Source: Candidatus Magasanikiibacteriota bacterium (GTDB lineage: Bacteria > Patescibacteriota > Patescibacteriia > Magasanikbacterales > UBA922). Taken from it: 64,000 nucleotides of DNA. Location of the stretch: positions 26,311-90,310 of the forward strand of contig JBAYJP010000004.1 in NCBI GenBank assembly GCA_041665025.1, given 5' to 3'. Below, piece after piece: positions 7,644 through 40,387 of the stretch; positions within the stretch are counted from its first letter, which is position 1, and each line of letters begins with the position of its first letter. Below the pieces are notes generated by a model. That model worked only from the letters and a program-made list of their open reading frames with translations. It made no database searches and was not told the origin of the DNA. A program made the position numbers and the translations under genes.

Positions 7644-7716
7644 TAATTAGCAATCTTTTAGCACCTACCTGGTGGCAGGCAGATTATAATCTTTAATCTT
7701 TATTTTTCAATTTTAA

Positions 7717-7750
7717 ATACCACCTTATTTTGGGTGGTATTTTGTTTTTG
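7717..7750 (+). terminator. rho-independent terminator after rsmB-like gene
   Basis: ataccacc/ggtggtat stem followed by tttgtttttg. Confidence 0.6.
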
Positions 7751-7877: not shown

Positions 7878-10800
7878 ATGCGACCATATTTTTTGAAGAG
7901 CGTTGCTCAGATAAAGGCGCGCTTATCTTCAATACTTCGGGTACAAAGAAACCGCTATTTTGCCGGTATATTTTTTGTATTTTGTATTACCATCGGATTA
8001 TTGTTTGTATCTCCTTCAAAAGCAGTTGAAGGCGTGAGTTGGCTTGTCGAGGGAGCTTCGTGGATGATACTTGGTATTGCACAAATTTGTATTGCATTGA
8101 CCGTATTTTTCTTGCGGTTTTTTATCACGCTTGCCAGTTACAACAATTATATTGACACCGCTGTAGTACAGCTTGGCTGGACTATGGTGCGCGATGTTGC
8201 CAACATGTTTTTCGTAGTGGCGCTTCTTGTTATCGCTTTTGCTACCATTTTGGGACTCGAACAATATGAATGGAAAAAAGGCTTAGCAAAGCTCATCATG
8301 ATGGCGCTTTTTATTAATTTTAGCAATCTTATTGCGCAGCTCATTATTGATGTCGCGCATGTATTTACCATTACCTTTCTCAATGCAGTATCAGCTACAG
8401 CCGGCGGGAACCTGATAAACATGTTTCAATTGCAGAATATTACGAGCATGGTGTTAAGTTCTGATACATCCCAACTACAGTTTGGCACAACCCCCGAAGG
8501 AGCAAGTACTGCAGTATTTATTGGGGTTGTGGTTGCTGCGTTATTTGCGATCATGGCTGCAGTTGCTATGGGTTCGTATGTGGTCGTCATGGCTATACGC
8601 GTGGTCGTATTGTGGGCTTTGATTATTTTGTCTCCTTTGGCGTATTTGCTTGCTGCCATGCCAAAAGGAGAAAAATATGCACAGCAATGGTGGAGCGAAT
8701 TTAGCAAACATGTTCTTGTGGCTCCGGTTATGGTATTTTTTCTGTGGCTTGCATTTGCGACCCTTGGTTCAGGGCAGATTTTACAAGAAATTCAAAATAA
8801 TGATCCAGCAGTGGTGCGCTTGCAGCAGACAAATGAAGCTGCCTCTATCTCAATTACCAAAGTATCGACGTGGGAGAACATGGCAAATTATTTGATTGCC
8901 TTTTTCTTTCTTATGATGGGTATCAAGATGACACAAGAGACAGGGGCCCAAGGAGCTGGGCTTGTGGGCGGAGCAGCAAACTTTGGAAAGAAAGTTGCAA
9001 CTATTGCGACGGGGTATGCGGCGGGTAGGTGGTTGGCCGGGAAGGCTGGGAAAGGTGCCGTGGCAGGGCTTAAAGGTGCCGCATATTATATGCCGGGTGT
9101 TGGTGGAAGGAGAATTGAGACTGCGCTAAAAACAGCTAAAGCAAATATTAAAGCAGGGTGGTATCGTAAAGGTGCAGGTATAACCGGAAAGGGTGTGATG
9201 GCACAGTCAGCACAAGCTAAGAAGGCACAGGAACTTGAAGAAATTGAGACAAAATTAAAAGATGAGAGTCTTGATAAGGGTGAGCGAGCTAAACTTGAGG
9301 AACGTAAAACTCAATTAACCGAAGGACATGCGCTTAGTGATAAAGAGCGACAAGAAGCTGCAAATGAGGCAGAAAAAAAAGGCATAAAACAAGGTAAATC
9401 TGAAAAAGAAATAGCGAGTATGAAACGCGATGCTGTCATGGAAGCAGAATTGGACGCTATGGGTACCAAAGGACTTCACGAAGTGGTTGGACAAGAATCA
9501 AGCGGTAAGAAGCATGGGGTTATCGGGTGGCTCGCACGCCGTGATGTTTCTCGTATGAAACATCTGAAAAAATCAGAAGGCCAGGCAGAAACTTTGGAAA
9601 AGCTTGCGTTCAAACATATGGGTTCAGAAGCCGGGGGTCTCATATTCAACAAAAAAAGCGCACAAATAAATGCACAAGATCGTTGGGAGCGTGGTTTGCT
9701 TAAGGCTGAAGAACGCAGAAGCAAAGCAAAAGACACAGAATTCGAAACAAAAGGAGAAGAAGCAGGTCTACATGAATCAAGGATAAAGTTTATGCCATCA
9801 GGCAGTACAGACTGGAAAAATCAGGAGAAGATGACTATGGCAGACCAGATAGCGTCCCATGATAGGGGTGCAGGAGCAGCGCAAAAACGCATTGAATCAG
9901 TGCTCAAAACTGCTGATATAAAAATAGATGTGAGTGCGAGTATTGCTGCGAAAGGGTTGGATGTGGAACAAAAGGGCGTGAATGGACTGCTATTATCAGA
10001 TGAACAGGTAGCAATGGAGGAAAAAAAAGCAAAGGCTGAAGAGGATGAGAGGATAATTGTAAAAGAAGTAAACGATAAATACGAACCACAAAGAGACGGC
10101 CTGAAGAAAGAAATGAGAGACGCGGTAGATACTGACCCAGCAGTTGAAGCTGCACAAAAGGCGTTAGATGCATATAGAGAGGAGGGAGGAAAAAGAGACA
10201 AATACCTTGAAACTGAGGAGGGAAAGGCAGAACAAAAAGAACGTGAAGATTCGATTGACGCAAAACTAAAAGCAAATAAAGAATTAGCAGAAGCTATTCG
10301 TAAAGATCCTAATACAAATTTTTCTGATCCAGCTCTTGAGGCTTTGGGGCAAAAATTGAAAAATGCACAAGAGGCACGGAAAACAGCTTTGGTAGATGGA
10401 AATACAAAAGAGGCGACAAAACAAACTGATAACATAAATAAAATAGAAGAAGATATAAAAAAAGCAAAAGAAGATCGTGCAACATTTGAAAAAGAAGAAC
10501 AGAAAGAGCAGGACAGATTATCTTCTCGAAGAGCCATGAAAACAGACGAAGAAGAGCAGTTGGTAAAAGATGTCTCTACAAAGAGAAAAGCTGTTATGGA
10601 AGATGAACAAGGGAAATATAAACTCGCAAAAGCTGAACATGATAAGCTCGGAAAAAGCATGGAGGCAGAGATTGACGATAAAGCCAGAGCACCTCGCGAG
10701 GTGATACGTACGGAAAGACAAAAGTTGAGTGACTATTTGAATGGTAGAGACAAGGATAAAGAAAACCCGGACGGAAAGAAGAAAAAATGGGAAGAATCTC

Positions 10801-12914
10801 CTGAATATGTAGCAAGAAGGAAAGAATGGGCAAGAAAAACTGCAGATATTGAAGCGAAAGCCCGTTCGACAAAAGGTCTCGGAGGTACTATTGCGCAGTA
10901 TCAGCTCGATACGGTAACCGCGCGTAAAAAAGCTACACAAGCTCAGCTCCAACAGCATGCGCTCGGTCTGAATAGCGTGAGCGAATTGTTTGAGAGAATG
11001 GAAATAGAAGAGCAATTCGCGGCCGCAGCTGAAAAAATAAAAGAAGGAATAAAAAACAGTCATTTGACTGAAATATTTAAAAAGGGGACTAAAGAATTAG
11101 AAAAAGCTGCTGAAGCAATAGCAAAAGGCGCTGCGTCAGTGAAAGATGCGTACAAAAATATTGGCGCGGGGGCGCAAGCTATAAAAGCAGAAGTCGAATC
11201 AGAGTATCTTACAAGTCTGAGCCAGACACAGCGTCAGCGCACAAAAGATGAAGCAGACGACCAGTATTCTTTGCAAAGATTTGGGTTTGGTACACCGTCG
11301 ACCGCGTTTAAAAATCTTATTAAAAAAAGAATGGATGAGACGTTTACTGGCGTAGAGCGTGAACAGGCGGTTGTTATGGCAATGGGCTCTCTCTCGCATC
11401 TGATGTTGGCACAGGAAGGTGGCGAAGAATTAGACTTGGATCATCAGGCGCAGATGATGGCAAATGTCCAATATTTGGTCAAACAAGCATGGTCAGATGA
11501 TCTATTGGCTCATATTGTCAATAAGGTTAACGACAAGGATAAATTTACTGGAAAAGAAAAGCAAGAAGCCGAAATGTTAGGTAGAGTATTCGTAGATAAA
11601 TTACACTGGGGAACACGGACAGGTGAAGGCGAGAATCAAAAAGTAGTTATAGACAAAAATATTTCTGACAATCGGCGTACCAATGATTTGCACCGTTTGA
11701 CCGCTTATGCTGGAGATACAGATTTATTGCAGTCAGAAAATGCCGTTTTGCATCATAAAAAACAGATGGAAGCAGAGCGAGGTGATAAGGTCGGCTATAT
11801 GGAAGCTGTCAAGGATCTAGCTGAAAAGATTACGGAAGCTCGAAACATTGCTGGGGGTGCAGACGTTGACGTGGAGAAGTTGGGTGAGAGTTTAGGTTTG
11901 AAAGGAATAGCAACTGGCGGAGAAGAACTAAAAGCATTTATGAAGCGATTTGCGAGTGAAGCCAGAGGTGCTGCTGATGCGGTAAGTGAATTTGAAAAGG
12001 ACATTCGTAGTCATTCCGAAGCAAATGAGCTCATGGCTGATTACAAAAATTTGGCACTGCAAGTTGGCCACTTGGATGATGGTGGCCACACGTATTATGA
12101 TATGGGTGACAAGATAGCACGCGGTCATTTGGCTGACGATGCCATGGAGTTCGTTTTGTCTGATTGGCGTAAATTGAACAGTAGAGAGAGAGCACGTCGT
12201 CTCAAATCGCATTCAATTGGTCAAATGGATGAGGATTCAGGGACAATATACAAGGATGAACGCAACATAAAGGCAATACAGGAGACAATGCAAGGTTTAA
12301 CGCGACTTGTATTTTCAGATATTGATGGACGAACTAAAGATCACACGGCCGGAGGAGAAGCGGGAGAAACTTTTGAAACAAATGATGCAACAGGAGCTGC
12401 TATGATCGGAGCACAAAGCGGTACTATGTTTCAAAAAACATTCAAAGACGCGGAAAAAGCCAGAGCAAAACTCAAGATTTTTTTTGAATCACTGACAGAT
12501 GATGCAGAAAAGCTGCTTTTATCTAATTTTGGAATGACCTCAGCACAAATGAAAGCAAAAGCTGAAACAGATGAAATATTTGCTCGTCGTCTCGCGACAT
12601 TGACTCAAGTTGCTGATAATTATGCAGTAGATGCGATCGGCAGTTCTGATTTTTTGGCTGCTAGTATTGGAAGCAAGTCGGGTGTTGAATATGATCTAGC
12701 CGTCCAAGGTAAATTTAATGTTGATCTAGGAGATCAAGATTTGAGAGTTGAAGTAAAAAATGAAGATAAGTTGCTTGATTGGATATCCATGTTGAGAACA
12801 AACAGAACAACAGTTGATTTTGAAAGACAAAGAAAAGCGATTGAGAACAAATTTAAATTAAACAAGAGACCAAAACCAGATTCAAAAAAGGAAGATGACA
12901 ATGAACCACGATAA
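7878..12914 (+). CDS. VirB6/TrbL-like polytopic membrane protein with ~1300-aa charged coiled-coil extension
   Basis: The first ~330 aa have 6 or more hydrophobic helices in a TrbL/VirB6-like arrangement. The remainder is a K/E/A-rich low-complexity coiled coil. The gene heads a cluster with PrgI-like and VirB4 genes. Confidence 0.5.
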   Translation: MRPYFLKSVAQIKARLSSILRVQRNRYFAGIFFVFCITIGLLFVSPSKAVEGVSWLVEGASWMILGIAQICIALTVFFLRFFITLASYNNYIDTAVVQLGWTMVRDVANMFFVVALLVIAFATILGLEQYEWKKGLAKLIMMALFINFSNLIAQLIIDVAHVFTITFLNAVSATAGGNLINMFQLQNITSMVLSSDTSQLQFGTTPEGASTAVFIGVVVAALFAIMAAVAMGSYVVVMAIRVVVLWALIILSPLAYLLAAMPKGEKYAQQWWSEFSKHVLVAPVMVFFLWLAFATLGSGQILQEIQNNDPAVVRLQQTNEAASISITKVSTWENMANYLIAFFFLMMGIKMTQETGAQGAGLVGGAANFGKKVATIATGYAAGRWLAGKAGKGAVAGLKGAAYYMPGVGGRRIETALKTAKANIKAGWYRKGAGITGKGVMAQSAQAKKAQELEEIETKLKDESLDKGERAKLEERKTQLTEGHALSDKERQEAANEAEKKGIKQGKSEKEIASMKRDAVMEAELDAMGTKGLHEVVGQESSGKKHGVIGWLARRDVSRMKHLKKSEGQAETLEKLAFKHMGSEAGGLIFNKKSAQINAQDRWERGLLKAEERRSKAKDTEFETKGEEAGLHESRIKFMPSGSTDWKNQEKMTMADQIASHDRGAGAAQKRIESVLKTADIKIDVSASIAAKGLDVEQKGVNGLLLSDEQVAMEEKKAKAEEDERIIVKEVNDKYEPQRDGLKKEMRDAVDTDPAVEAAQKALDAYREEGGKRDKYLETEEGKAEQKEREDSIDAKLKANKELAEAIRKDPNTNFSDPALEALGQKLKNAQEARKTALVDGNTKEATKQTDNINKIEEDIKKAKEDRATFEKEEQKEQDRLSSRRAMKTDEEEQLVKDVSTKRKAVMEDEQGKYKLAKAEHDKLGKSMEAEIDDKARAPREVIRTERQKLSDYLNGRDKDKENPDGKKKKWEESPEYVARRKEWARKTADIEAKARSTKGLGGTIAQYQLDTVTARKKATQAQLQQHALGLNSVSELFERMEIEEQFAAAAEKIKEGIKNSHLTEIFKKGTKELEKAAEAIAKGAASVKDAYKNIGAGAQAIKAEVESEYLTSLSQTQRQRTKDEADDQYSLQRFGFGTPSTAFKNLIKKRMDETFTGVEREQAVVMAMGSLSHLMLAQEGGEELDLDHQAQMMANVQYLVKQAWSDDLLAHIVNKVNDKDKFTGKEKQEAEMLGRVFVDKLHWGTRTGEGENQKVVIDKNISDNRRTNDLHRLTAYAGDTDLLQSENAVLHHKKQMEAERGDKVGYMEAVKDLAEKITEARNIAGGADVDVEKLGESLGLKGIATGGEELKAFMKRFASEARGAADAVSEFEKDIRSHSEANELMADYKNLALQVGHLDDGGHTYYDMGDKIARGHLADDAMEFVLSDWRKLNSRERARRLKSHSIGQMDEDSGTIYKDERNIKAIQETMQGLTRLVFSDIDGRTKDHTAGGEAGETFETNDATGAAMIGAQSGTMFQKTFKDAEKARAKLKIFFESLTDDAEKLLLSNFGMTSAQMKAKAETDEIFARRLATLTQVADNYAVDAIGSSDFLAASIGSKSGVEYDLAVQGKFNVDLGDQDLRVEVKNEDKLLDWISMLRTNRTTVDFERQRKAIENKFKLNKRPKPDSKKEDDNEPR

Positions 12915-12937
12915 AGTAGTTTCTCTAAATTTTTAGT

Positions 12938-14467
12938 ATGTTTAACCAATATATACAACCCCATTCACCTGATAACAGGAAGAAGATAGAGAAATTGCTT
13001 TCCCAATTATTTGGTTTGGTATCGTCGTGGTCAGACAAACCCTTGTCTGAAAATACTTTATGGGGCGGATTTAATATGTTGAGTGAAAATTTTGCTTCAG
13101 AAGAATTGATGCAAATAGAAGATGAAAAAGATGCTTGTTTTGCCAATAGTCTGTGTGGGTGTATAGATATAGTTGCGTTGGAATCGTTTGTAAAAGAATT
13201 GGAGAATATTGAACATGAAATAACACGCGGTTCTGTCCAAAATGAACATACGCAGATATCTGTCGCCCCGCTTTCACCTGAACTTGCGTCATGTATATCA
13301 GATGTCTCCATGGGTGATTCGTATGTAGCCAAGTTGAGAAATTACTTTTTCTCACTCATGCCATCGCAACAAAAACCATTTGTAGATCGTATAAATCATG
13401 CTCACATGATGTATACAGATGTGAAATTGTGGCTTATTCCCATAGCATCAGCCCTGTTAGCGCTCAATCCGCAAAAGAGGATTTTAAATTATAGTGAATT
13501 TGAAACAGCATTGAGCAATCTCGTACAGCATCCAACCGGAGAACGTGATGATTCGCTTATTGCATTATTTAGATATCTTGGTCAGTCTTTTTATGGCAGA
13601 GACGCGGAAGTCATGGAATGGGCCAGTGATTTTATGATGAATTTTGTTGTTGACGAAGAGGTATATGCGAGGCCGATTGATTATCTTTTGTTTGTAATAA
13701 GCACACATCTTGCATTTTTCAATTTTGCTGATGATCTCCAAGATGTCCAAGATATTTTGGTGCAGAAGAATTTTTTGAGTGCTTTGACTGTTGGCGTGCC
13801 TATAGAGAACATGATAAAAAAAGGCTTGGCCCAAGAATCTTTGTTACCGTATTATTTGACTCGCACATCGGGTCTTGCACAAGCTCTCGCACAGAATACC
13901 CAGACAGTTTTTTTGGATGCCACTCATAATACATTATCTATACAAGTTTTTCTCAGCGAGTATTCTGCTTTTGGCAAAGACAATTATTTGGATGGTTATA
14001 CACAGATGCAGTATGTTACTAATACGCTCAAACAATATGGTATTCCAGAAGCTATGAGGACATATCTTCATACCATATTGAGCATGTATATACATCTCAA
14101 TGAAGGAGATATTGTTGATTACAAAGGATTTTTGAGTGACGAAGGACTGGTAGAACAATATAATTGGAAGTCTGTGCTCGATCATGATATGACAGACGAA
14201 GAAATCAAAAAAGCAAAAGAATACTTAGCTATGGTACAGCGTCCGACTCGTGAAAAAATATATGCAGCAGTAGCGATACAGTCAGTCAATTGGAAAGAAG
14301 AGCCTTATCTTCATCGTGCATTACAAATCAATTCACTTTTTGAAGAAGCAAATGATATACACTGGTCTCCGCTTATATACTTTGATGAAAGAGAAAACGA
14401 TTGGAAATTAGACAAGGAATTGCCCGATATGTGGGGTGGCGGAGAAGATAATTCGAAGAAGGAGTAA
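12938..14467 (+). CDS. hypothetical protein (T4SS-cluster associated, no TM)
   Basis: A long ORF that is co-directional with and tightly spaced to neighbours. No recognisable motif. Confidence 0.5.
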   Translation: MFNQYIQPHSPDNRKKIEKLLSQLFGLVSSWSDKPLSENTLWGGFNMLSENFASEELMQIEDEKDACFANSLCGCIDIVALESFVKELENIEHEITRGSVQNEHTQISVAPLSPELASCISDVSMGDSYVAKLRNYFFSLMPSQQKPFVDRINHAHMMYTDVKLWLIPIASALLALNPQKRILNYSEFETALSNLVQHPTGERDDSLIALFRYLGQSFYGRDAEVMEWASDFMMNFVVDEEVYARPIDYLLFVISTHLAFFNFADDLQDVQDILVQKNFLSALTVGVPIENMIKKGLAQESLLPYYLTRTSGLAQALAQNTQTVFLDATHNTLSIQVFLSEYSAFGKDNYLDGYTQMQYVTNTLKQYGIPEAMRTYLHTILSMYIHLNEGDIVDYKGFLSDEGLVEQYNWKSVLDHDMTDEEIKKAKEYLAMVQRPTREKIYAAVAIQSVNWKEEPYLHRALQINSLFEEANDIHWSPLIYFDERENDWKLDKELPDMWGGGEDNSKKE

Positions 14468-14480
14468 TTTTTGTTTGGTT

Positions 14481-15707
14481 ATGTCAGTGCCAACATTCAT
14501 GGTAAAAAAACAAGATGGCACCCAAGTCAAAATGACATTGGACGAGTTTAAGGTATACCAACAGACACTAAAGCACTTGAGCACTAAAGCACTTGAGCAC
14601 AACGACCAACCTCTCAATCAGCCAGCTAAAGAAGTTGCAAAGAGTGATGACGTGCCAAAAGGAAAAATGGCTATAGTTGAAAAAAAGGAAATAAAACAAA
14701 AAAAAGAAGAATTGCCCATGGTATTGGGGACAGAAGCAGTGACAACGGTGAGTCCGGTGAAAGATGTATTTGTTGACGAAGCTAAATATGTACGAAATTC
14801 GAAAACTGCGAAAAATACGAAAGTAAACGAGAAAAATATTGTTGAAAAAGAGGTTAAAAAGCCTATTTCATTAGCTAAAGATGATTTTGTATCGTTATTA
14901 GAAGAAGATGAGGAAGATGTGCCTAAACCGCAAGGACAAGCAGTAACGATGAGTTCGTATGATGATGTGGTGAAAAAAATTATCACTGAAAGCGGAGTGC
15001 GTGTGCCCGCAGATCTGAAAGAGAGGCTTTCGTCGCTTATTTTGTCCTATATCAAACAAGTTCGTGATGAATACCAATTTATTGACTATGCAGATCGACC
15101 GGCACAAAGGGGAGGTGTGGGTTTGTCAAAAGATGATGCTTCAAAATTATTATCAATGATTAAAAAAACCAATACTCAGCCTGCTAAGCGTAGTTTAGAG
15201 ATTGTTACGGATTCTATTGTTACTAAACCCGCACAGAAAAGTTTGAATGTTATTACGGATTCCACCTCGGTTAGATCTATTGAACGAAGTCAAAAGATTA
15301 TTACGGATTCCGCTATTGATAAACCAATTGATATAGTACAGCCACGCAACGTGGTTCATGATATTGTCTCCATACCGCCTGAACAAAAAACAGTGGGACC
15401 AGAAGGAGAAATGAGTACGTTTGGATTATCAGATTTTCGTAGATTGGCCCGTGATCCTGCAAAAGCCCGCGACATGCTTTTTTCAAAGATTCAGGGGTGG
15501 AAAGCCGAGTCTTTTTTACTCTATATGAAAGCAGCACAGGCCTGGCACAAGAGTCCTCTCTATAGAGAATATCTTGACTTGACGGAGAATTCACTTAAAG
15601 AAAATACGCAAATTTCACAATTGTTGATCGAGCAAACAAAGGCTGGGGGGATGACATTTGGAGAATATAAAGAAATTGTTGAGTTGAATAGACAACTTAG
15701 TAACTAA
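14481..15707 (+). CDS. hypothetical protein with internal ~50-60-bp tandem repeats
   Basis: The ATG at 14481 follows the upstream stop. Three imperfect repeats (..ITDS..) span 15190-15330. Confidence 0.5.
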   Translation: MSVPTFMVKKQDGTQVKMTLDEFKVYQQTLKHLSTKALEHNDQPLNQPAKEVAKSDDVPKGKMAIVEKKEIKQKKEELPMVLGTEAVTTVSPVKDVFVDEAKYVRNSKTAKNTKVNEKNIVEKEVKKPISLAKDDFVSLLEEDEEDVPKPQGQAVTMSSYDDVVKKIITESGVRVPADLKERLSSLILSYIKQVRDEYQFIDYADRPAQRGGVGLSKDDASKLLSMIKKTNTQPAKRSLEIVTDSIVTKPAQKSLNVITDSTSVRSIERSQKIITDSAIDKPIDIVQPRNVVHDIVSIPPEQKTVGPEGEMSTFGLSDFRRLARDPAKARDMLFSKIQGWKAESFLLYMKAAQAWHKSPLYREYLDLTENSLKENTQISQLLIEQTKAGGMTFGEYKEIVELNRQLSN

Positions 15708-15720
15708 AAAATATTAAAAA

Positions 15721-15796
15721 TGTACGAAATTCGGAAACTACGAAATATTCGAAATACATTTTTTTCGTACCTTTCGCAGCTTTCGTATTTCGTACA
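15721..15796. repeat. TACGAAA-heptamer palindromic element (copy A)
   Basis: tgtacgaaat(t/a)cg(g)aaactacgaaatattcgaaatacatttttttcgtacctttcgcagctttcgtatttcgtaca. Near-identical to the copies at 16235 and 17488. Confidence 0.8.
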
Positions 15797-15799
15797 TGA

Positions 15800-16231
15800 A
15801 TGTATATGCAACAGTTCGTCATTCCACAATTTATCGATGTCGAAGACAAGATTTTTGGGCCAATCACCACACGTCAGTTTTTGATTTTGCTTGTGGCCGG
15901 CATTTGTATATTTTTATCCTACCGTTTTGCTGATCTTGCGTTGTTTATTGTCGTACTTGCCGTCATGGGGGGCTTGGCATTAGTGTTCGCATTTGTTAAA
16001 ATTAACGGACAGACGTTTCATTATTTTTTGTTAAATATTATTCAGACCTTGCGCAAGCCATCTTTGAGGATTTGGAGAAAATTTTATCATAAAAAAGAAT
16101 TAGAATTTTTGAGAAAACAAGTAACTGAAGAAAAAATTATTGAAGAAAAGGCAAAGCCCGTGCACAGAGAGAGAATTAGAGATTTGGCTCTGCTTGTTAA
16201 TACTGGTGGTTTTTATAAGCCAGAAGAATAA
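15800..16231 (+). CDS. PrgI-family (VirB3-like) conjugal-transfer membrane protein
   Basis: N-terminus VIPQFIDVEDKIFGPITTRQFLILL followed by two TM helices, typical of PrgI/VirB3-like proteins that sit upstream of VirB4. Confidence 0.55.
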   Translation: MYMQQFVIPQFIDVEDKIFGPITTRQFLILLVAGICIFLSYRFADLALFIVVLAVMGGLALVFAFVKINGQTFHYFLLNIIQTLRKPSLRIWRKFYHKKELEFLRKQVTEEKIIEEKAKPVHRERIRDLALLVNTGGFYKPEE

Positions 16232-16234
16232 TTA

Positions 16235-16310
16235 TGTACGAAATACGAAAACTACGAAATATTCGAAATACATTTTTTTCGTACCTTTCGCAGCTTTCGT
16301 ATTTCGTACA
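16235..16310. repeat. TACGAAA-heptamer palindromic element (copy B)
   Basis: More than 90% identical to copy A. Confidence 0.8.
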
Positions 16311-16322
16311 TAATATTATGTT

Positions 16323-16739
16323 ATGGACCAAGGAGGTAAACAATATACGCTAAGAAGAAATGATTTGATATATCCAGAATTGAGTTTTAAGATTAGTGGT
16401 GTTCTATTTAATGTGTTTAAACAGTTGGGCGGAGGTCATGAAGAAAAATACTACGAGAAAGCAGTGTCTATCGGTTTTACTAAAGGACAGATAAAGTTTA
16501 ACCGCCAATATTATGTTCCTCTAACGTATGAGGGTGAACATATTGGTAAATATTACTTAGATTTTTTAGTAGAGGGTAAGATAATATTGGAATTAAAAAG
16601 AGGAAAATATTTAAATGCACGTCTTATAGATCAGGTAACTAAATATTTGGAAACTTTAAAGTTACAATTGGCAATTATTGCATGTTTTACGAGCAATGGT
16701 GTAATAATAAAACGTATTATAAATCATAACATGCTGTAA
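16323..16739 (+). CDS. GxxExxY-family protein (PD-(D/E)xK-like)
   Basis: GGGHEEKYYEKAV matches the G-x-x-E-x-x-Y signature, and the length is ~140 aa. Flanked on both sides by TACGAAA elements. Confidence 0.6.
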   Translation: MDQGGKQYTLRRNDLIYPELSFKISGVLFNVFKQLGGGHEEKYYEKAVSIGFTKGQIKFNRQYYVPLTYEGEHIGKYYLDFLVEGKIILELKRGKYLNARLIDQVTKYLETLKLQLAIIACFTSNGVIIKRIINHNML

Positions 16740-16744
16740 TACAC

Positions 16745-16777
16745 TTTCGAAATTTCGTAGCTTTCGAATTTCGTACA
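16745..16777. repeat. TACGAAA-family half element (right arm only)
   Basis: tttcgaaatttcgtagctttcgaatttcgtaca. Confidence 0.5.
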
Positions 16778-16782
16778 TATAT

Positions 16783-17469
16783 ATGGATGATAAAGTCAAA
16801 CAAAAAAAGAGTAATTCCAAGCCGAGCACACAGGCCCATCTTCCTATTGCAGAAATACGGGAAGGTGTGGTGGTCTTGAAAGATGGAACATTGCGCGCGG
16901 TTCTCATGACCTCGAGTATTAATTTTGCGTTGAAATCAGAAGATGAACAGAATGCTCTTATTTCTTCGTATGTAGGATTTCTCAATTCTCTCGATTTTCC
17001 TGTGCAAATTGTCATCCAGTCGCGCCGATTGCAGATTAAGCCATATTTGGAGAAGCTTTCCACGCTCGAACGAGAGCAGAAAAACGAATTACTGCGTGTG
17101 CAAATTGCCGATTATCGTGCATTTATTGAGGAGTTGGTAGACATTGGAAAAATTATGACAAAAAAATATCTCGTAGTAGTCCCATATGATCCTATTTCAA
17201 ATAGCAAAAAGAGTTTTTGGTCTCGATTTAAAGAGGTAATAAAACCGGCTATTTCGTTGAGGCTTAAAAATGATCGTTTTCAAAAACGAAGGCAAGATTT
17301 GGATATGAGAGTCCGGCAAGTCGAAGGCGGCCTTTCATCTATGGGACTCCAAGTGGTCCAACTTGATACACAAGCGCTCATTGAATTGTATTACAGCACC
17401 TACAATCCCGATATTTCTTTTGCAGAGACCCTAGGAGATATTGATAAACAACAAGTAGAAACCATTTAA
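16783..17469 (+). CDS. VirB4/TraC-family N-terminal segment (first part of a split VirB4)
   Basis: LPIAEIREGVVVLKDGTLRAVL...FPVQIVIQSRR resembles the start of VirB4-type proteins. It is in the same frame (mod 3) as the next ORF, and the two are separated by a 102-bp element. Confidence 0.5.
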   Translation: MDDKVKQKKSNSKPSTQAHLPIAEIREGVVVLKDGTLRAVLMTSSINFALKSEDEQNALISSYVGFLNSLDFPVQIVIQSRRLQIKPYLEKLSTLEREQKNELLRVQIADYRAFIEELVDIGKIMTKKYLVVVPYDPISNSKKSFWSRFKEVIKPAISLRLKNDRFQKRRQDLDMRVRQVEGGLSSMGLQVVQLDTQALIELYYSTYNPDISFAETLGDIDKQQVETI

Positions 17470-17470
17470 T

Positions 17471-17565
17471 TATGTACGAATTAATTATGTACGAAATACG
17501 AAAACTACGAAATATCCGAAATACATTTTTTTCGTACCTTTCGCAGCTTTCGTATTTCGAACATA
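17471..17565. repeat. TACGAAA-heptamer palindromic element (copy C) separating the two VirB4 ORFs
   Basis: Near-identical to copies A and B, with a short 5' partial duplication atgtacgaattaatt. Confidence 0.8.
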
Positions 17566-17571
17566 TCTATT

Positions 17572-19452
17572 ATGCCGTTCAAACCCGTTAGTTTTGGAAA
17601 AAATCCAAAGTTCGCTCCCATATCTGCTCCAGAAGATGAACAAAAGAAAAAAGTTCAGCAGGAAATGGTGTCGTTGAAAGAAGAGCGTTTGTACCGCGAG
17701 GGCACTGTTGCCATTCGCGATCTTATTGCACCTTCTGCGTTTAGAGTTGAGTCAAGCTTTCTTCAGTTGGGTACGACTATGCTTCGGACTATTTTTATCG
17801 TGAGTTACCCTCGCTATATTTCTGTCGGATGGAGTGCGCCTATACTCAATTTGAATTTGACCATGGATATTAGTATGTTCTTTTATCCGATTAATTCTGC
17901 GATTATTTTGAAACAGCTCAAGAAAAAAGTAGGTGCATTGCAAGCGCAATTATCCGCGGATGCAGAAAAAGGAGCGCCCCGTGATCCAGTACGCGAAACG
18001 GCGTTGCAAGATATTGAACAATTGCGCGATGATTTGACTCAAGGCACTGAACATTTTTTTCAATTTGCGTTTTATATCACATTATATTCCACGAATCTTG
18101 AAGAATTGGAACGTATTACCGATGATATCCATAATATTTTTGGTTCAAAATTGATTCACAGCAAACATGTGTTGTATCAGGCAGAACAGGGATTTAATTC
18201 GACGGTACCGATGAGCGTCGATGAGCTTGTTATTGCGTTTAATATGAATTCATCTCCTATTGCAGCGTCATTTCCTTTTATATCTTCTGAGCTGACTTCC
18301 GACGATGGTATCTTGTATGGTGTGAATCGCCACAATAACAGTCTTATTTTGTTTGACCGTTTTTCTTTGCAAAATGCAAATATGGTCGTATTTGCAACCT
18401 CTGGTGCAGGAAAATCATATGCGGTTAAGTTGGAAATTTTGCGCAGTCTCATGATGGGAGTGGATATCATTGTCATCGACCCTGAAATGGAGTACGTGCA
18501 TCTTTGCGAGGCAGTAGGGGGTACGTATATCAGTATTTCTCTTGCTTCGGAAAGTAAAGTCAATCCGTTTGATTTGCCTCGACCTGTTGGGCAACAAGTT
18601 TCAACTGAAGATATTATCCGGAGTGCAGTTATTACACTCAAAGGGTTGTTGCGTATTATGTTTGGCACTATTACTGCCCAAGAGGATTCTATTTTGGATA
18701 GAGCATTGCTTGAAACATATGCCAAAAAAGATATTACTGCCCAAAGCGATTTGTCTACGGTTGAGCCGCCAATTATGCAAGATTTGCTTGATGTACTTGA
18801 AGGTATGGAAGGCGCAGAAACACTTGTGTTAAAGTTGAAAAAATATACGGAAGGAACATTTGCAGGACTTTTCAATTCACCGACCAATGTAAACATGAGC
18901 AATCAGCTTGTCATATTTAGTGTGCGTGATTTGGAAGATGAATTGCGTCCCATGGCTATTTATACATTGGTCAATTATATTTGGAATATTGTACGTTCGG
19001 AGCGCAAAAAGCGTTTGCTCATGATTGATGAGGCGTGGTGGCTCATGATGCATGAAGATAGCGCAAAATTTATGTACGCGCTTGTGAAACGGTGTCGCAA
19101 ATATTATTTGGGTGTTACGACGATTACCCAAGATGTGAATGATTTCTTGCGTTCTCAATATGGGCAAGCGATTGTAAACAACTCTGCGTTGCAAATGCTC
19201 TTGCGCCAGTCGCCGTCTGCGGTGGACGTGATCCAAAAAACATTCATGCTGACTGAAGGAGAGAAATATTTGCTTTTGGAAAGTCCGGTAGGGCAGGGTA
19301 TATTTTTTGCAGGCAACAAACATGCGGCCATTCAGATTGTTGCTTCATATACCGAAGACCAATTGGTTACATCAAATCCCCAGCAATTGCTTGAAATCGA
19401 GCGTGCTAAAAAAGAATTTGAACAGCAGATGACGGGACGAGACCAAAGTTGA
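17572..19452 (+). CDS. VirB4/TrbE/CagE-family T4SS ATPase (C-terminal major part)
   Basis: CagE_TrbE_VirB-type region (FIVSYPRYISVGW), Walker A FATSGAGKSY, Walker B LLMIDEAWWLM. Confidence 0.85.
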   Translation: MPFKPVSFGKNPKFAPISAPEDEQKKKVQQEMVSLKEERLYREGTVAIRDLIAPSAFRVESSFLQLGTTMLRTIFIVSYPRYISVGWSAPILNLNLTMDISMFFYPINSAIILKQLKKKVGALQAQLSADAEKGAPRDPVRETALQDIEQLRDDLTQGTEHFFQFAFYITLYSTNLEELERITDDIHNIFGSKLIHSKHVLYQAEQGFNSTVPMSVDELVIAFNMNSSPIAASFPFISSELTSDDGILYGVNRHNNSLILFDRFSLQNANMVVFATSGAGKSYAVKLEILRSLMMGVDIIVIDPEMEYVHLCEAVGGTYISISLASESKVNPFDLPRPVGQQVSTEDIIRSAVITLKGLLRIMFGTITAQEDSILDRALLETYAKKDITAQSDLSTVEPPIMQDLLDVLEGMEGAETLVLKLKKYTEGTFAGLFNSPTNVNMSNQLVIFSVRDLEDELRPMAIYTLVNYIWNIVRSERKKRLLMIDEAWWLMMHEDSAKFMYALVKRCRKYYLGVTTITQDVNDFLRSQYGQAIVNNSALQMLLRQSPSAVDVIQKTFMLTEGEKYLLLESPVGQGIFFAGNKHAAIQIVASYTEDQLVTSNPQQLLEIERAKKEFEQQMTGRDQS

Positions 19453-19491
19453 ATAAGTAGCTAAGTTGGCTAAGTTACCTAAGTTGCGGAT
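19453..19491. repeat. left inverted repeat flanking four-helix-bundle gene (ctaagtt x3)
   Basis: taagtagctaagttggctaagttacctaagttg. Its partner lies at 19846-19895. Confidence 0.6.
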
Positions 19492-19845
19492 ATGGGGACG
19501 TATAAAGATTTGGATGTATATAATAGATCATTTAAATGTTCTATTGCGATTTATAAATTAAGTTTAGAATTGCCAAAATATTTGCAGTATGATATTGCAG
19601 ATGATATACGAAGGGCAGCGCGGTCAATTCCATCCAATATTGCTGAAGGATATGGTAGAGATAAATCTAGTGCTGACAAAATAAATTTTCTTAGAACCTC
19701 GCTTGGTTCTAATGATGAGGTATTATTTAATCTTGAGTTTATATTTCAACTAGGTTTAATCAAAAGAGAAAGATATGAAAAAGCAGTCGAGCAGTATACC
19801 ATTATAGGGGCAGAGCTTTTTAAACTCATTCAGACATTAAAATAA
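19492..19845 (+). CDS. four-helix-bundle protein (23S rRNA intervening-sequence protein family)
   Basis: The 117-aa protein has SIPSNIAEGYGR at its core, which is the family hallmark. Confidence 0.8.
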   Translation: MGTYKDLDVYNRSFKCSIAIYKLSLELPKYLQYDIADDIRRAARSIPSNIAEGYGRDKSSADKINFLRTSLGSNDEVLFNLEFIFQLGLIKRERYEKAVEQYTIIGAELFKLIQTLK

Positions 19846-19895
19846 TTTTCAACTTAGATAACTCAGGTACTTAGTTAACTTAGCTACTTACGTAT
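19846..19895. repeat. right inverted repeat flanking four-helix-bundle gene
   Basis: caacttagataactcaggtacttagttaacttagctactta is the reverse complement of the left repeat. Confidence 0.6.
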
Positions 19896-20486
19896 ATGTT
19901 AACCCTTCGTCAACGAATTTTCATTATCTCAGGAATAATCATCGGGGTGATACTCGCGGTTGTTTTATTTATTTTATATGCGCGCGCTCCTAAAGCTCCC
20001 GATGCCGATGTCATAGAGGAACAGGCTGACCAAAATCAAGCGAATGTAAATACACAGCAAACGCAAATACCGCGCGTTATTGTACCTGCTCCAACTTCTA
20101 CAGTTCCACAAACCCCAGAAGAAGTATATATGAAGCAACTTGCCAAAATGTTTGTTGAGCGGTTTTTGAGTTATTCAAATCAATCAGGAGATCAACATCT
20201 CGAAGACGTATTGACATTTGTTACGCCAAAGATGAAAGCATGGGTTCTCAATCAGGCTGTGGAACAAAAACAGGTGTATGAAGGAATGACAACTTCTGTA
20301 TTAAGTACACACGTTTTGGAAAAGACAGGAGACAAGGCAAAAATTGAAATCGGTGCACAACAAATCGTAACCAGAGAAAAAGAAAATGGCGGGATAGAGA
20401 CGCTCACCGAACAAAAAACAGGCAGTGTTGATTTGGTAAAAGTTGGGGGTGAATGGAAAGTGGATGGGGTGTGGTGGGACGAATAA
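19896..20486 (+). CDS. membrane-anchored hypothetical protein (possible VirB8-like NTF2-fold periplasmic protein)
   Basis: A single N-terminal TM helix followed by a ~150-aa soluble domain. Position is right after VirB4. The fold assignment is speculative. Confidence 0.4.
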   Translation: MLTLRQRIFIISGIIIGVILAVVLFILYARAPKAPDADVIEEQADQNQANVNTQQTQIPRVIVPAPTSTVPQTPEEVYMKQLAKMFVERFLSYSNQSGDQHLEDVLTFVTPKMKAWVLNQAVEQKQVYEGMTTSVLSTHVLEKTGDKAKIEIGAQQIVTREKENGGIETLTEQKTGSVDLVKVGGEWKVDGVWWDE

Positions 20487-20559: not shown

Positions 20560-21810
20560 ATGTCTATGGAACAAGCCATGACGGCCACTAAGACAGTGAC
20601 CAATACCAAGCTGCTTGTAGCAACAGCCGTAATGCTCGTGGCAGGAGGATTGGCATTTGCCGTGGCGCCATTTAGTTATTCTCGAGAAGGTGCAAATTGT
20701 ATAGACTCAGTCACACTCGAGAAACAGTGTGGCAAAACGGGCTATAACTCCGCGTCGTTCACCTGTAGTGATGGTACTAAAATCGTTCAGTCAGAGAAAA
20801 AATGTCTAACTGCGAAGCAATGGGATTCCTACAGTGCACAATTATGCAAATCGCATTGTAAGGCAACAGGAGTAACTAAAAAAAATCTTGACCCAAGCTC
20901 AGGCCAAGTGAGAGAACTTTGCAGCGACAACCAAGATAATGATGGCGACCAATTGGTTGATTGTGCTGATAATGAATGTAATAGCGATACAAATTGTGCT
21001 GCCGTAAGCAGGACTGGGACGGGAGAGATACCCTCAACTGCAGTTATCTTTGCAGATATTAATTTAGAAAATGCTGTTCGGGAAACAATTAATAAGCCCA
21101 ATGGGTATGTCCTTAAGTCAGACGTCAATTCTATAGCAGAATTACGACTGAATGGGAAAGGGATTTTGAACCTTCAAGGTTTAGAAGAATTTAGGTCCTT
21201 GGTACTCTTAGATTTAAGAGACAACCAGATTAGTGATATTGCTCCGATAACTAGTCTGACAGGATTAATGAATCTTAATATAGATAATAATCGGATCACC
21301 AGTCTAGGTCAGTTTCGTCATCTTATAGCTTTGCAAGAATTATCTTTAAGGCAAAACCAGATAACGAGTATGGATATCCAGGGATCAATTTCTGGATTAA
21401 AAAGATTATATCTTAGCAACAATCAGATAAATGACATGAGTGGACTTATCACTCCACTATCATTATTTGCGTTTCCTATGTTGGAAGAGATCTATTTGGA
21501 TAATAATCAGATAAGTTCTCTGAGTGCTTTTAGCGGGGTGCAGACTATCAAAAAATTGAATCTAGCAAATAATCCAATTAGTGATATTTCTCCTTTGGAT
21601 TCTTCCTTACAGATAACATTTATTGATTTAACTAACAATCCCATACATAGTCTTGAAAGGATGAGATATTGGAATAGCTTACAAAGAGTTTTGGTGGGAG
21701 GAACTGCTTTAGATGGTCCTGAAGATTGCACGATGATTGGTAATCTCAGGGCGAGAGGGGTTACGGTAATAGTAGACAGTAGGATAAGTAATACCCTGTG
21801 TGAAATTTAA
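20560..21810 (+). CDS. surface protein: N-terminal signal-anchor, 6-Cys module, leucine-rich repeats
   Basis: Hydrophobic KLLVATAVMLVAGGLAFAV, then a 6-Cys region, then LRRs (LxxLxLxxNxIsdi, about 10 repeats). Confidence 0.6.
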   Translation: MSMEQAMTATKTVTNTKLLVATAVMLVAGGLAFAVAPFSYSREGANCIDSVTLEKQCGKTGYNSASFTCSDGTKIVQSEKKCLTAKQWDSYSAQLCKSHCKATGVTKKNLDPSSGQVRELCSDNQDNDGDQLVDCADNECNSDTNCAAVSRTGTGEIPSTAVIFADINLENAVRETINKPNGYVLKSDVNSIAELRLNGKGILNLQGLEEFRSLVLLDLRDNQISDIAPITSLTGLMNLNIDNNRITSLGQFRHLIALQELSLRQNQITSMDIQGSISGLKRLYLSNNQINDMSGLITPLSLFAFPMLEEIYLDNNQISSLSAFSGVQTIKKLNLANNPISDISPLDSSLQITFIDLTNNPIHSLERMRYWNSLQRVLVGGTALDGPEDCTMIGNLRARGVTVIVDSRISNTLCEI

Positions 21811-21843: not shown

Positions 21844-23190
21844 ATGGAACAAACTATGACTGTCACTAAGAGTATAACCAATACCAAGCTGCTCGTGGCA
21901 ACAGGCGTAATGCTCGCAGCAGGAGGACTCGCATTTGCGACAGTGCCATTATCATATCAAAATGCACAGGGACAAAAATGCGGGGTAAATAGTTATAGTG
22001 TATCTCAAAATTGTGGGGGTTCTTCGTACAGACAAGCTAAAATCACATGTCACGATGGAAGTTCATATAATTTAGGAGGTCCTACATCATGTAAACCAGC
22101 AAAGACATGGGAGACGTATGCACAAAAACAATGCTATAATAGATGTGCAGTGCCTGTTTCAGCTCCACAGCTCACCATGGCAAGAGCTAGTGACTATGTT
22201 TCTGGAGACATGATTTTGGATAACAGATTTTTAATGGATCGTTTTATTTTGTCGGCTTCGAATCAAGAAGATATCCAGCTCAACCGAATGACATTTGCTA
22301 TCCTAAGAGCAGGAAGTGGTACTTTTTCTGGTAGAAATTGGAAACTTTCTTTTAATGATGGGGCTCAAGAATTTCAAAGCGAAGCTACGTATTCGTCGTC
22401 TCTTTCTGGCAGTGTTACATTTGATACCAATGTTATCATTCCAAAGGGGACGAATGTAAGGGCGACGCTTTATACAGATACGACCGAATCCCAAGGCGAT
22501 GTCTTTGTTTATACTGCACTTCGTGATCCTGGTGTAGTAGCTCGAGGTGTATCGAGTGCACAAAATGCTCAAATTATGGGGTTGCCTATTGTATGTCCAA
22601 CACGTTATGGGGAGTTTCCAACTATGACAACGTCAACAGCTTTCCCGGTAGTAGCGTTGCGTCCGTTAGACAGCACTCGTCTTATGAATGGCACAGGAGA
22701 TTTATTTAAGTTTACTATAACTGCCGCATCAGACGATATTTCTCTTTATGGCGTAACTTTCGATATCCAATCTTACAATGTATCAGTAGATAATTTATAT
22801 CTGTATGACGTGACAAACAGTAGTTTTGAGATACAGTTAAACAGTACAACAGGTACTGCTGGTTTATGGCAAACAGTGGGCAGTGACTGGGCAACAAATT
22901 ATCCAAATAAAGAAATAGCCATATCAGGTGGCACTTCACGTACGTTTGTAGTAAGAGGTAATATAAGAGGAGCTACTATAGGTTCTGCAGTCATGGTGAG
23001 ATTGGCCGGTGATGCCAATTCTATACCTGCAGGTAGCGCTGCACAGATTGACGCGAGTGCTGACGGCGATTTTATCTGGTCTGATAGGAGTAATGCAAGC
23101 CATGGTATAACAACAGATGATTGGTTTAATGGTTATGGTGTTTCAGGGCTTCCTGCAACATTCACTAATTATCAGACGTTAGCCTACTAA
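21844..23190 (+). CDS. paralogous surface protein: same N-terminal anchor and 6-Cys module, divergent beta-rich C-terminus
   Basis: MEQTMTVTKSITNTKLLVATGVML... and the same 6-Cys spacing as the upstream gene. The C-terminal part is unrelated. Confidence 0.55.
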   Translation: MEQTMTVTKSITNTKLLVATGVMLAAGGLAFATVPLSYQNAQGQKCGVNSYSVSQNCGGSSYRQAKITCHDGSSYNLGGPTSCKPAKTWETYAQKQCYNRCAVPVSAPQLTMARASDYVSGDMILDNRFLMDRFILSASNQEDIQLNRMTFAILRAGSGTFSGRNWKLSFNDGAQEFQSEATYSSSLSGSVTFDTNVIIPKGTNVRATLYTDTTESQGDVFVYTALRDPGVVARGVSSAQNAQIMGLPIVCPTRYGEFPTMTTSTAFPVVALRPLDSTRLMNGTGDLFKFTITAASDDISLYGVTFDIQSYNVSVDNLYLYDVTNSSFEIQLNSTTGTAGLWQTVGSDWATNYPNKEIAISGGTSRTFVVRGNIRGATIGSAVMVRLAGDANSIPAGSAAQIDASADGDFIWSDRSNASHGITTDDWFNGYGVSGLPATFTNYQTLAY

Positions 23191-23265: not shown

Positions 23266-23982
23266 TTATCCTCGCGCAATGGTAAATCCGATTGTTTGTG
23301 TCGCGTTATTTTCTTTTAGTACCTTGGCACATTCTTGCATCGTACTTCCAGTAGTAAATACGTCATCAACAATGATTATCGTCTTATTTTTTATCATATC
23401 TTTTTGCGTCTCTTCGATTTCAAATGCATTTGCGAGATTTGTCAGTCGACCTCCACGATTTAATTTGGCCTGCTGTTTGGTATGCCGTGATCGTTTTAGT
23501 GGTTTCAATAATGGAATATGCATTATATTAGAAATAATTTGTGCGAGGAGTTCAGCTTGGTTAAATCCGCGTTCAGCGTATCGTCGTTTGTGAAGGGGGA
23601 TGGGTATCAAAAAGTCTGCTTCGAGTTTATAGCGCGAAAGAAAATGTAAAAATATTTTTTCACATGTTCCCAAAATATCTTGCGCATATGAATACTTGAG
23701 CGTATGTATGATGTTGCCCTTGAGGGAATGTTCTTGATACGGTGTTATTGCAATATGAAGGTCCAAAGATGATTGAGGTCTGCATGCCTCACAGCATACC
23801 CCATCTGGTTGTTTTGCATGGCATACAGGACAACAAAAAACACCCGACAAGTCGAGCGTTTTAAAACATTGTTCGCATACAAATGATCCCTCGACATTGC
23901 AACCAAGACAGTACATGGGAAACACGATATCTTTGACTGTCGTTAGATATTTTTGAATCAGTTTGTTTCCCTCCCTAAACAT
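23266..23982 (-). CDS. comF: ComF-family protein (phosphoribosyltransferase-like, Cys4 N-terminus)
   Basis: CLGC..CEQC..CPVCH zinc finger and a PRTase motif IIVDDVFTTGST. Confidence 0.8.
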   Translation of the reverse strand: MFREGNKLIQKYLTTVKDIVFPMYCLGCNVEGSFVCEQCFKTLDLSGVFCCPVCHAKQPDGVCCEACRPQSSLDLHIAITPYQEHSLKGNIIHTLKYSYAQDILGTCEKIFLHFLSRYKLEADFLIPIPLHKRRYAERGFNQAELLAQIISNIMHIPLLKPLKRSRHTKQQAKLNRGGRLTNLANAFEIEETQKDMIKNKTIIIVDDVFTTGSTMQECAKVLKENNATQTIGFTIARG

Positions 23983-30942: not shown

Positions 30943-30945
30943 TAT

Positions 30946-40287: not shown

Positions 40288-40289
40288 TA

Positions 40290-40357
40290 TGTACGAAATT
40301 CGAAAGCTACGAAACATACGAAATTTCGGACCTTTCGCAACTTTCGAATTTCGTACA
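40290..40357. repeat. TACGAAA-family palindromic element (divergent copy)
   Basis: tgtacgaaattcgaaagctacgaaacatacgaaatttcggacctttcgcaactttcgaatttcgtaca. Confidence 0.7.
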
Positions 40358-40387
40358 TAATTTAATTCAGAGTCTAAGGTTTTTCCC

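Follow-up and report, generated by a model that had tools for sequence, protein, structure and literature searches.

The 64-kb window analysed here, a stretch of contig JBAYJP010000004.1 from a Candidatus Magasanikiibacteriota bacterium, carries a run of genes for a type IV secretion system (T4SS) that reads in one direction from rsmB, which ends at 7643, to about 23.2 kb. We hold it probable, at roughly 0.7, that this cluster is the vertically inherited chromosomal T4SS of the Patescibacteria clade, derived from the MPF-FATA class, and that it functions in the display of pilin-adhesins and not in conjugation. As far as the sequence tells, the gene set is a minimal monoderm translocon that is intact, has VirB4 as its single ATPase, and has kept its catalytic motifs. 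The open reading frames (ORFs) on which a preliminary description of the window drew are all present at their coordinates and on one strand, and the VirB6-like, PrgI/VirB3-like and VirB4 components named in it are real. The analysis covered 84 kb, comprising the window and 10 kb on either side of it on the source contig.

Chromosomal T4SSs without a relaxase are carried by almost all Patescibacteria (the Candidate Phyla Radiation), and were described between 2023 and 2025 (PMC10633639, PMC12102498, PMC12857230). Wang et al. 2023 reported that the T4SS and pilin array of a saccharibacterium are essential for epibiotic growth and that comEC is dispensable; for that T4SS, no recognizable coupling or relaxase proteins were reported (PMC10633639). 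In the survey of Quinonero-Coronel et al. 2025, the VirB4 of the chromosomal systems is nested in the monoderm MPF-FATA class (PMC12102498; review PMC12857230). According to the same survey, a near-universal TrsD homologue lies beside virB4, accompanied by PrgI/VirB3, VirB6, VirB2-like pilins of family PF18895 and almost no relaxases, while VirB8 is rare and mostly confined to class ABY1, in which comF, recG and radA lie nearby (PMC12102498). The present locus has an MPF-FATA-related VirB4, an adjacent TrsD-like gene, a nearby PrgI, a chromosomal setting without a relaxase, and PF18895 pilins in the genome. Because every testable defining feature is found, and the features of an integrated conjugative element or of conjugation are not, the locus belongs to the published Patescibacteria-clade T4SS.

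The comparison with other genomes points the same way. A VirB4 scan of the genome collection gave 575 confirmed relatives, in metagenome-assembled genomes (MAGs) of Patescibacteria, and the best 80 of these were taken as the related loci, with the presence or absence of inserted genes judged in the first 40. Nearly all of the 80 are from Candidatus Magasanikbacteria or other Patescibacteria MAGs, at 70-90% VirB4 identity. The gene order kept in these loci is rsmB, extended VirB6, a protein in a fixed slot, a 402-residue family, PrgI, TrsD-like, VirB4, VirB8-like and ComF. For instance, L084, a relative with independent gene calls, shows this order too, and downstream of it come hsp20, VanW, clpP, a gene for a DHH protein and smc, just as they do in the window; this chromosomal neighbourhood is shared across dozens of species. 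Median identity is 76% for VirB4 and 66% for the TrsD-like protein, as compared with 57% for RsmB, a value drawn from five loci only. The T4SS cluster is thus, by all appearances, a vertically inherited core machine, and neither an integrated conjugative element nor a pseudogene, because the gene order, the two-gene VirB4 and the neighbourhood are conserved across species, and VirB4 is more conserved than RsmB.

The PrgI-family protein and VirB4 are the components most directly identified by sequence profiles. PrgI scores 42 bits against PF12666, for which the cut-off is 27, has two hydrophobic helices (transmembrane, or TM, segments 22-40 and 48-66), and is conserved in 74 loci at 41-74% identity. 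VirB4 is encoded by two genes, and the split noted in the preliminary description proves to be one between a TrsD-like gene and an ATPase gene that are complementary on full-length models. The TrsD-like protein matches the N-terminal parts of three VirB4 models, including VirB4_plasma 94-282 (4.5e-10) and conju_CD1110 11-119, and its orthologue in L084 carries the Pfam TraC-like domain PF26593; the TrsD-like protein had no match in a profile search of the PDB. The ATPase matches P-loop_TraG (1.6e-29), conju_CD1110 (4e-103; 346 bits, cut-off 325), the Mbov_0397 VirB4 model (5e-83) and the solved VirB4 C-terminal domain, PDB 4AG5 (7e-47). The Mbov_0397 model is covered by the two products in turn, the TrsD-like ORF spanning 94-282 and the ATPase ORF 288-889. 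The Walker A (FATSGAGKSY) and Walker B (IDEAWWLM) motifs of the ATPase read as first quoted, and are kept in 73/79 and 75/79 relatives, respectively.

In the window, the 102-nt spacer between the two VirB4 genes holds two in-frame stop codons, both TAA. The same two-ORF arrangement, broken at the same residue, is found in each of 77 loci; the second ORF may be in any of the three frames relative to the first, the gap varies from 1 to 287 nt, and both halves are strongly conserved (52-90% identity). Since all of these loci share the break in spite of the varied frames and gaps, the split is ancient and selected, and the two-gene VirB4 is evidently a conserved arrangement and not damage. Read-through or an alternative genetic code was also considered as an explanation for the split, and was rejected, as both stops in the window are TAA, the relatives use all three stop codons and all frames, and the code in long ORFs elsewhere is the standard one.

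For the VirB6-like protein, the assignment rests on Pfam scans of orthologues and on structure prediction from database homologues. The 1678-aa protein consists of a polytopic N-terminal domain of about 360 residues, a K/E-rich linker from about 400 to 1000, and a more globular region from about 1000 to 1678, and it is predicted to have at least five TM helices and a VirB6-like fold. A weak precomputed match to TrbL_3 is on record for it, TrbL is matched by 12 of 33 orthologues (best 9e-6), and PF19590 or PF04610 is present in several database homologues. When profiles of the N-terminal domain were run against the PDB, nothing but low-complexity or helical noise came back. The long tail was at first described as a K/E-rich coiled coil. 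It is indeed K/E-rich, being 37-51% charged over residues 400-1000, but a coiled coil is not demonstrated, because hydrophobic residues are few (17-21%) and a test for heptad (3.5-residue) periodicity found none. The 1300-aa tail is suggested to be cytoplasmic, because of a basic juxtamembrane segment, the absence of a signal peptide in the 509-aa partner protein, and the canonical topology of VirB6. Across relatives, the size of the protein ranges from 830 to more than 2000 aa, and residues 1000-1678 are conserved in three relatives only (L023, L031 and L071).

The gene directly downstream of this protein encodes one of two conserved cytoplasmic families. The preliminary description listed both as unknown proteins; they are without a match in Pfam, NCBIfam or the PDB, even with orthologue sets and profiles, but both turn out to be conserved members of the cluster. 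The 509-aa family is fast-evolving and has no TM segments, and an iterative hidden Markov model recognises a member at the corresponding position in 50 loci, out of 52 with an ORF at that position. Conservation of the family is highest in L023, L031 and L071, the loci that also keep the C-terminal region of VirB6, and the protein and this region therefore co-vary. The 402-aa family lies upstream of PrgI in 68-71 of the 80 loci, at 23-41% identity, and an exhaustive search of a library of 1.84 billion proteins recovered 1,916 cluster representatives at E<=1e-3, as compared with just 2 relatives in a word-indexed homologue search.

The 196-aa protein that follows VirB4, first described as membrane-anchored, is anchored as stated and is further identified as VirB8-like, on predicted structure and context and not by sequence profile. 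The AlphaFold2 model (pLDDT 88) shows a TM helix and an NTF2-like domain, and Foldseek matches in the PDB include TcpC (3UB1, 1e-5), TrwG/VirB8, CagV, PrgL, OrfG and Bartonella VirB8, at 1e-5 to 3e-4. Part of the assignment is borne by genomic context, because unrelated proteins with the NTF2 fold (CaMKII hub, ARC6) score much like the VirB8 family; the gene is found directly 3' of VirB4 in 62-71 loci. The window protein is unmatched by VirB8 and PrgL sequence profiles, Pfam VirB8 is matched by 1 of 37 orthologues (E=0.0019), and a PDB profile search gave nothing.

Candidate substrates for the machine lie between 40 and 55 kb, where two genes encode proteins of 744 and 4201 aa. Both match the T4SS_pilin family PF18895 above its cut-off, and the matches are N-terminal domains of giant proteins and not small pilins. 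The pilin module, made up of a signal peptide, a VirB2-type two-helix hairpin and a Gly/Pro linker, is fused to a very large ectodomain, which in the 4201-aa protein has further Pfam matches to Laminin_G_3, Big_5, TIG and beta-propeller domains. The fused ectodomains would lie outside the cell, because the PF18895 domains follow signal peptides and have the VirB2 two-helix hairpin; surface assembly or presentation for host contact is therefore favoured, and the two proteins are plausible substrates of the T4SS. Small TSP3-repeat proteins are encoded after the pilin-fusion genes, at 55244-56661.

The two regions also share a palindromic element of about 79 nt, with arms built of ~8-nt 'tacgaaa' units, ATGTACGAAA...TTTCGTACAT, and a hairpin free energy (dG) of about -28 to -33 kcal/mol. 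It occurs at seven sites in the 84 kb, with 0 expected by chance, and in the T4SS or pilin-fusion cluster only: five sites are in the T4SS cluster, one precedes the gene at 40388, and the seventh lies where the pilin cluster ends, upstream of 56729. A half element at 14788-14814 lies in frame within the gene for the 402-aa protein (KYVRNSKTAKN), in a variable low-complexity linker. Other loci of Magasanikbacteria (L012, L029, L035, L042, L051, L056, L067 and L070) have their own species-specific palindromes with periodic arms, located in the p423/prgI, prgI/TrsD, TrsD/VirB4 and VirB4/VirB8-like spacers and unrelated in sequence between species. The recurrence of palindromes in the same spacers suggests a function, in RNA processing or stability, or else a preferred landing site, and the palindromes shared within the window could reflect co-regulation, RNA processing or merely tolerated insertion of repeats. 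That the cluster is the assembly machinery for the pilin-fusion proteins, as the preliminary description proposed, is plausible given the T4SS_pilin domains and the shared palindrome, and falls short of proof.

In the display of pilin-adhesins, VirB3 and the TrsD-like N-domain would hold the VirB4 hexamer at the membrane and complete it, to judge from the roles of VirB3-VirB4 and of the N-domain in other T4SSs, with VirB6 and VirB8 building the membrane channel and stalk. Hydrolysis of ATP by VirB4 would drive the extraction of VirB2-like pilin domains from the membrane, and the machine would assemble these domains, with the giant adhesin-like ectodomains to which they are joined, on the surface or present them there. 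The outcome, an organelle for attachment or exchange, would serve an epibiotic lifestyle, with no conjugative transfer of DNA. Several points weigh against this reading. The function is extrapolated from Saccharibacteria and from the structural biology of T4SSs, and the structural matches of the VirB6-like protein are modest (Foldseek E 0.02-0.1, TM-score 0.3-0.43). Profile searches recover PrgI and VirB4, but the VirB6-like protein of the window is itself without a match at E<=1 in Pfam and NCBIfam scans, such matches being found among its orthologues. The pilin-fusion genes are 20 kb from the T4SS cluster, a pilin-domain match within 10 kb is found in one of the 80 related loci (L075), and the palindrome common to the two clusters could be a repeat that spreads locally, and not a link in their regulation. 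Finally, the gene for a coupling protein could lie on another part of the 321-kb contig or beyond it in the genome, and VirD4-like homologues lie far from virB4 in many Patescibacteria (PMC12102498).

Other explanations differ in what the machine is taken to move, or in whether it is taken to be a machine at all. The view that the locus is an integrated conjugative element, whole or in decay, with the VirB4 split as pseudogenisation, could draw on the two in-frame stops that break the VirB4 frame, the IS200-like transposase at 1988-2593, and the repeat elements and small inserted genes within the cluster. It is effectively refuted, as 77 out of 77 species-level relatives share the position of the break to the residue, differ in frame and conserve both halves at 52-90% identity, the halves are complementary to full-length VirB4 models, and the locus has a chromosomal position conserved across species and a base composition matching that of its flanks. 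In addition, no VirD4/TcpA coupling protein, relaxase or integrase was found in the 84 kb, either by scanning every sizeable ORF of the window against Pfam or in the 10-kb flanks, the sole VirD4-type matches being sub-threshold P-loop similarity within VirB4 itself. The absence of VirD4 and relaxase genes noted earlier for the 64 kb thus extends to the flanks, and the earlier suggestion that the system is not one of classical conjugation agrees with the conserved chromosomal synteny and with the published Patescibacteria T4SSs (PMC10633639, PMC12102498, PMC12857230). The lack of a relaxase and coupling protein, which export requires, also speaks for DNA import, in the manner of Helicobacter ComB or archaeal Ced/Ted, whereby environmental or host DNA would be passed to ComF and recombination proteins as a source of nucleotides or genes for an auxotroph. 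In the relatives, ComF is evidently a conserved downstream neighbour of the T4SS, its gene pointing the same way as the cluster in 68 of 80 loci and lying directly after the VirB8-like gene where checked (e.g. L001, L084); comF, recG and radA occur near virB4 in class ABY1 (PMC12102498), recO and ruvX lie 3 kb upstream of the cluster, and VirB4 is weakly similar to CedB (5.8e-12). In the window, however, comF has the opposite orientation and two inserted genes stand between it and the cluster, and co-transcription of comF with the T4SS is therefore dispensable. Moreover, competence of Southlakia epibionticum needs type IV pili and ComEC, and in that species the T4SS is essential whereas a comEC deletion is viable (PMC10633639; PMC12857230). 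What VirB4 shares with CedB is generic P-loop similarity (45 bits against a cut-off of 700), no CedA- or ComB-specific matches were found, and synteny in streamlined genomes can be historical, so that DNA import is regarded as unlikely.

It is also conceivable, and quite improbable in our estimation, that the cluster encodes a pilus-free translocator of effector proteins or a conduit for nutrients into or out of the host cell, in which case the pilin-domain proteins would be Sec-exported, membrane-anchored adhesins. The ordinary signal peptides of the pilin-fusion proteins and their distance of 20 kb are in keeping with this, and the huge, cytoplasmic-looking VirB6 tail and the two cytoplasmic proteins could act as a substrate receptor. 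Some T4SSs, among them Bordetella Ptl and Brucella VirB, need no coupling protein to secrete proteins (PMC12102498, PMC12857230), and protein export is among the options proposed by Wang et al. (PMC10633639). Against it, the analysis brought up no candidate effector and no secretion signal, VirB2-like pilins accompany the T4SS phylum-wide, and S. epibionticum cannot do without its pilin array (PMC12102498, PMC10633639). A further explanation, to which we give a similarly small chance, has the charged 1300-aa tail of VirB6, together with the 509-aa and 402-aa families, replace the coupling protein; the pilus would be one of VirB2-fused adhesins with megadalton cargo, and the T4SS and pilin operons would be coordinated by a common hairpin element processed at the RNA level. 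In a variant, the same machine may import host DNA for ComF.

Table 1. Coordinates of the features discussed, with strand.
Positions	Strand	Feature	Remarks
7715..7742	+	terminator-like hairpin	after rsmB; 11-bp stem then T-run; consensus scan only
7878..12914	+	extended VirB6/TrbL-like protein, 1678 aa	polytopic N-domain, charged linker, C-terminal region
12938..14467	+	conserved-position cytoplasmic protein, 509 aa	same-slot family, no TM segments
14499..15707	+	conserved cytoplasmic protein, 402 aa in public call	ORF open from 14436
14788-14814, 16742-16780, 56666-56718		palindromic element, partial copies	
15720..15798	.	palindromic element, full copy, 79 nt	intergenic; hairpin dG -27.9
15800..16231	+	PrgI-family VirB3-like protein, 143 aa	Pfam PF12666 1.1e-10
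16234..16312	.	palindromic element, second full copy	also brackets PD-(D/E)XK gene
16323..16739	+	PD-(D/E)XK (PDDEXK_3, GxxExxY-type) small protein	Pfam PF13366 1.2e-24
16783..17469	+	TrsD-like protein, separate VirB4 N-terminal domain, 228 aa	NCBIfam TrsD 2.6e-8
17487..17565	.	palindromic element, third full copy	in 102-nt spacer between VirB4 genes
17572..19452	+	VirB4 ATPase, central and C-terminal domains, 626 aa	NCBIfam conju_CD1110 4e-103
19492..19845	+	23S-rRNA intervening-sequence protein (IVP)/Avd-like four-helix-bundle protein	Pfam PF05635 4e-27
19896..20486	+	VirB8-like bitopic protein, 196 aa	N-terminal TM helix, linker, NTF2-like domain
20560..21810	+	membrane-anchored leucine-rich repeat (LRR) surface protein	Pfam LRR_4 2.8e-25
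21844..23190	+	membrane-anchored 448-aa surface protein	N-terminus paralogous to LRR protein
23266..23982	-	ComF (ComFC-type)	NCBIfam TIGR00201 2.4e-31; inverted, displaced here
40289..40359	.	palindromic element, full copy	29 nt upstream of first pilin-fusion gene
40388..42622	+	744-aa protein: signal peptide, VirB2-like T4SS_pilin domain, Big_5 ectodomain	PF18895 1e-7 to 3e-8
42629..55234	+	4201-aa protein: signal peptide, VirB2-like T4SS_pilin domain, adhesin-like domains	PF18895 9e-9 to 1.4e-10

Two genes within the cluster, encoding a PD-(D/E)XK protein and an IVP, are unrelated inserted cassettes and not parts of the T4SS. In the first 40 loci, the PD-(D/E)XK gene is found at this position in L014 only, and the IVP gene is absent at its position. 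The IVP gene is bracketed by inverted periodic repeats at 19453-19491 and 19846-19895 (duplex dG -40.9, as compared with -12.5 +/- 3.2 in shuffles), and in the case of the PD-(D/E)XK gene, the left arm of the palindromic element at 16234-16312 pairs with 16740-16782 (-37.5 versus -8.0 +/- 2.7). A second gene for an IVP four-helix bundle, at 30543-30899 on the minus strand, is bracketed within 30500-30945 (-25.7, with shuffles at about -8 to -12). The bracketed genes resemble rRNA intervening-sequence cassettes yet sit within mRNA operons, and the solo palindromes may be empty versions of them.

Downstream of the VirB8-like gene, two surface proteins had been listed as following the cluster. 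Both are present, and share an N-terminal anchor and Cys-rich module, but they are not a conserved part of the cluster, as no counterpart was found in the first 40 loci inspected; they are evidently lineage-specific. In the listed ORF for the LRR protein, which begins at 20443, the likely start is M40/M42. The opposite strand carries comF, a ClpB-like AAA gene and three tRNA-Ser genes between 23266 and 25642, and the genes for the LRR and 448-aa proteins, together with the reversed comF segment, look like a local insertion plus inversion. One of the tRNA genes, at 25392-25481 (-), was called by ARAGORN as tRNA-Ser with anticodon ACT, clustered with tRNA-Ser(GCT) and tRNA-Ser(TGA); it is unusual for a serine tRNA with A34 to stand next to a GCT isoacceptor, and this one may represent a variant or an erroneous call.

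The window as a whole is bacterial chromosome with a GC content of about 0.40, almost every gene on the plus strand, and housekeeping genes all along it (adk, map, ruvX, recO, a class II aminoacyl-tRNA synthetase, rsmB, clpP, smc, lepB, hisS, ybeY, ftsA and ftsZ). The GC content and skew of the T4SS run show no break with respect to its flanks, and the 10-kb stretches outside the window hold a ribosomal protein operon and secY upstream, and pyruvate kinase and pyruvate phosphate dikinase (PPDK) downstream. The hairpin after rsmB is likely to mark the upstream boundary of the T4SS transcription unit. No promoter is claimed, because a consensus scan gave 51 sites as compared with 49.6 in shuffles, and tRNAs were the sole matches in an Rfam scan. 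The transposase gene mentioned above, of the IS200-like Y1 type, lies between a gene for a CAP-domain secreted protein and map, in a secY-adk-map region that is otherwise conserved. A stretch of about 1.5 kb, at 28376-29897, has a slightly raised GC content (0.44) and short overlapping ORFs only, with no Pfam or Rfam match.

Among known systems, the locus is closest in its features to SEML1_0006-0019 of S. epibionticum and the phylum-wide T4SS, which are likewise chromosomal and relaxase-less and have an MPF-FATA VirB4, a separate TrsD, PrgI, VirB6 and PF18895 pilins, and it resembles the T4SS of class ABY1 in having comF nearby (PMC12102498). It differs from the Patescibacteria-clade systems in that the pilin is the N-terminal module of the 744-aa and 4201-aa proteins 20 kb away, rather than a set of small tandem pilins in the cluster, in the 1678-aa length of its VirB6, and in its two further conserved cytoplasmic families. 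A VirB8-like protein is found here by predicted structure, whereas no structural VirB8 homologue was reported for S. epibionticum (PMC12102498, citing PMC10633639). With the Gram-positive MPF-FATA systems (TrsC-TrsD-TrsE of pGO1/pSK41, PrgH-PrgI-PrgJ-PrgL of pCF10, CD1110 of Clostridioides difficile CTn2) the cluster shares VirB6-like, VirB3-like, VirB4 and VirB8-like proteins and the lack of outer-membrane core components; the two-gene arrangement of TrsD and VirB4 is that of the pGO1 subclass, and CD1110 of CTn2 gives the best VirB4 model match, above its cut-off. Unlike in those systems, no relaxase or VirD4/TcpA was found in the 84 kb, no oriT was seen, and the cluster has no VirB1-type hydrolase; it is not on a mobile element, and it is associated with VirB2-like pilin domains, which the Gram-positive systems are described as lacking (PMC12102498, PMC12857230).

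The layout of the VirB6-like protein, a polytopic core followed by a very large hydrophilic extension, recalls that of extended VirB6 paralogues (PMC12857230), the likeness being one of layout; here, the tail is 1300 aa long and 37-51% charged, with a lineage-variable C-terminal region that co-varies with the 509-aa protein. Similarly, H. pylori ComB and the archaeal Ced/Ted systems are chromosomal T4SS derivatives without a relaxase or coupling protein, and the cluster is linked to comF in the relatives, but no ComB- or Ced-specific components were detected, and the similarity to CedB is weak and generic. The size of the VirB6 extension, the structural VirB8 after VirB4, the two cytoplasmic families and the pilin-adhesin fusions are not mentioned in the available parts of PMC10633639, PMC12102498 and PMC12857230.

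The T4SS core of Magasanikbacteria is thus larger, and its parts are better defined, than the published survey would lead one to expect, and the locus does not constitute a new kind of system. The T4SS of the Patescibacteria is the first reported to be essential for its bearer, and the present locus indicates that a VirB2-like pilin module can be fused to adhesins of several thousand residues. The VirB8-like protein, the two cytoplasmic families, the VirB6 extension and the pilin fusions provide handles with which to distinguish between an adhesive pilus, protein secretion and the import of DNA.

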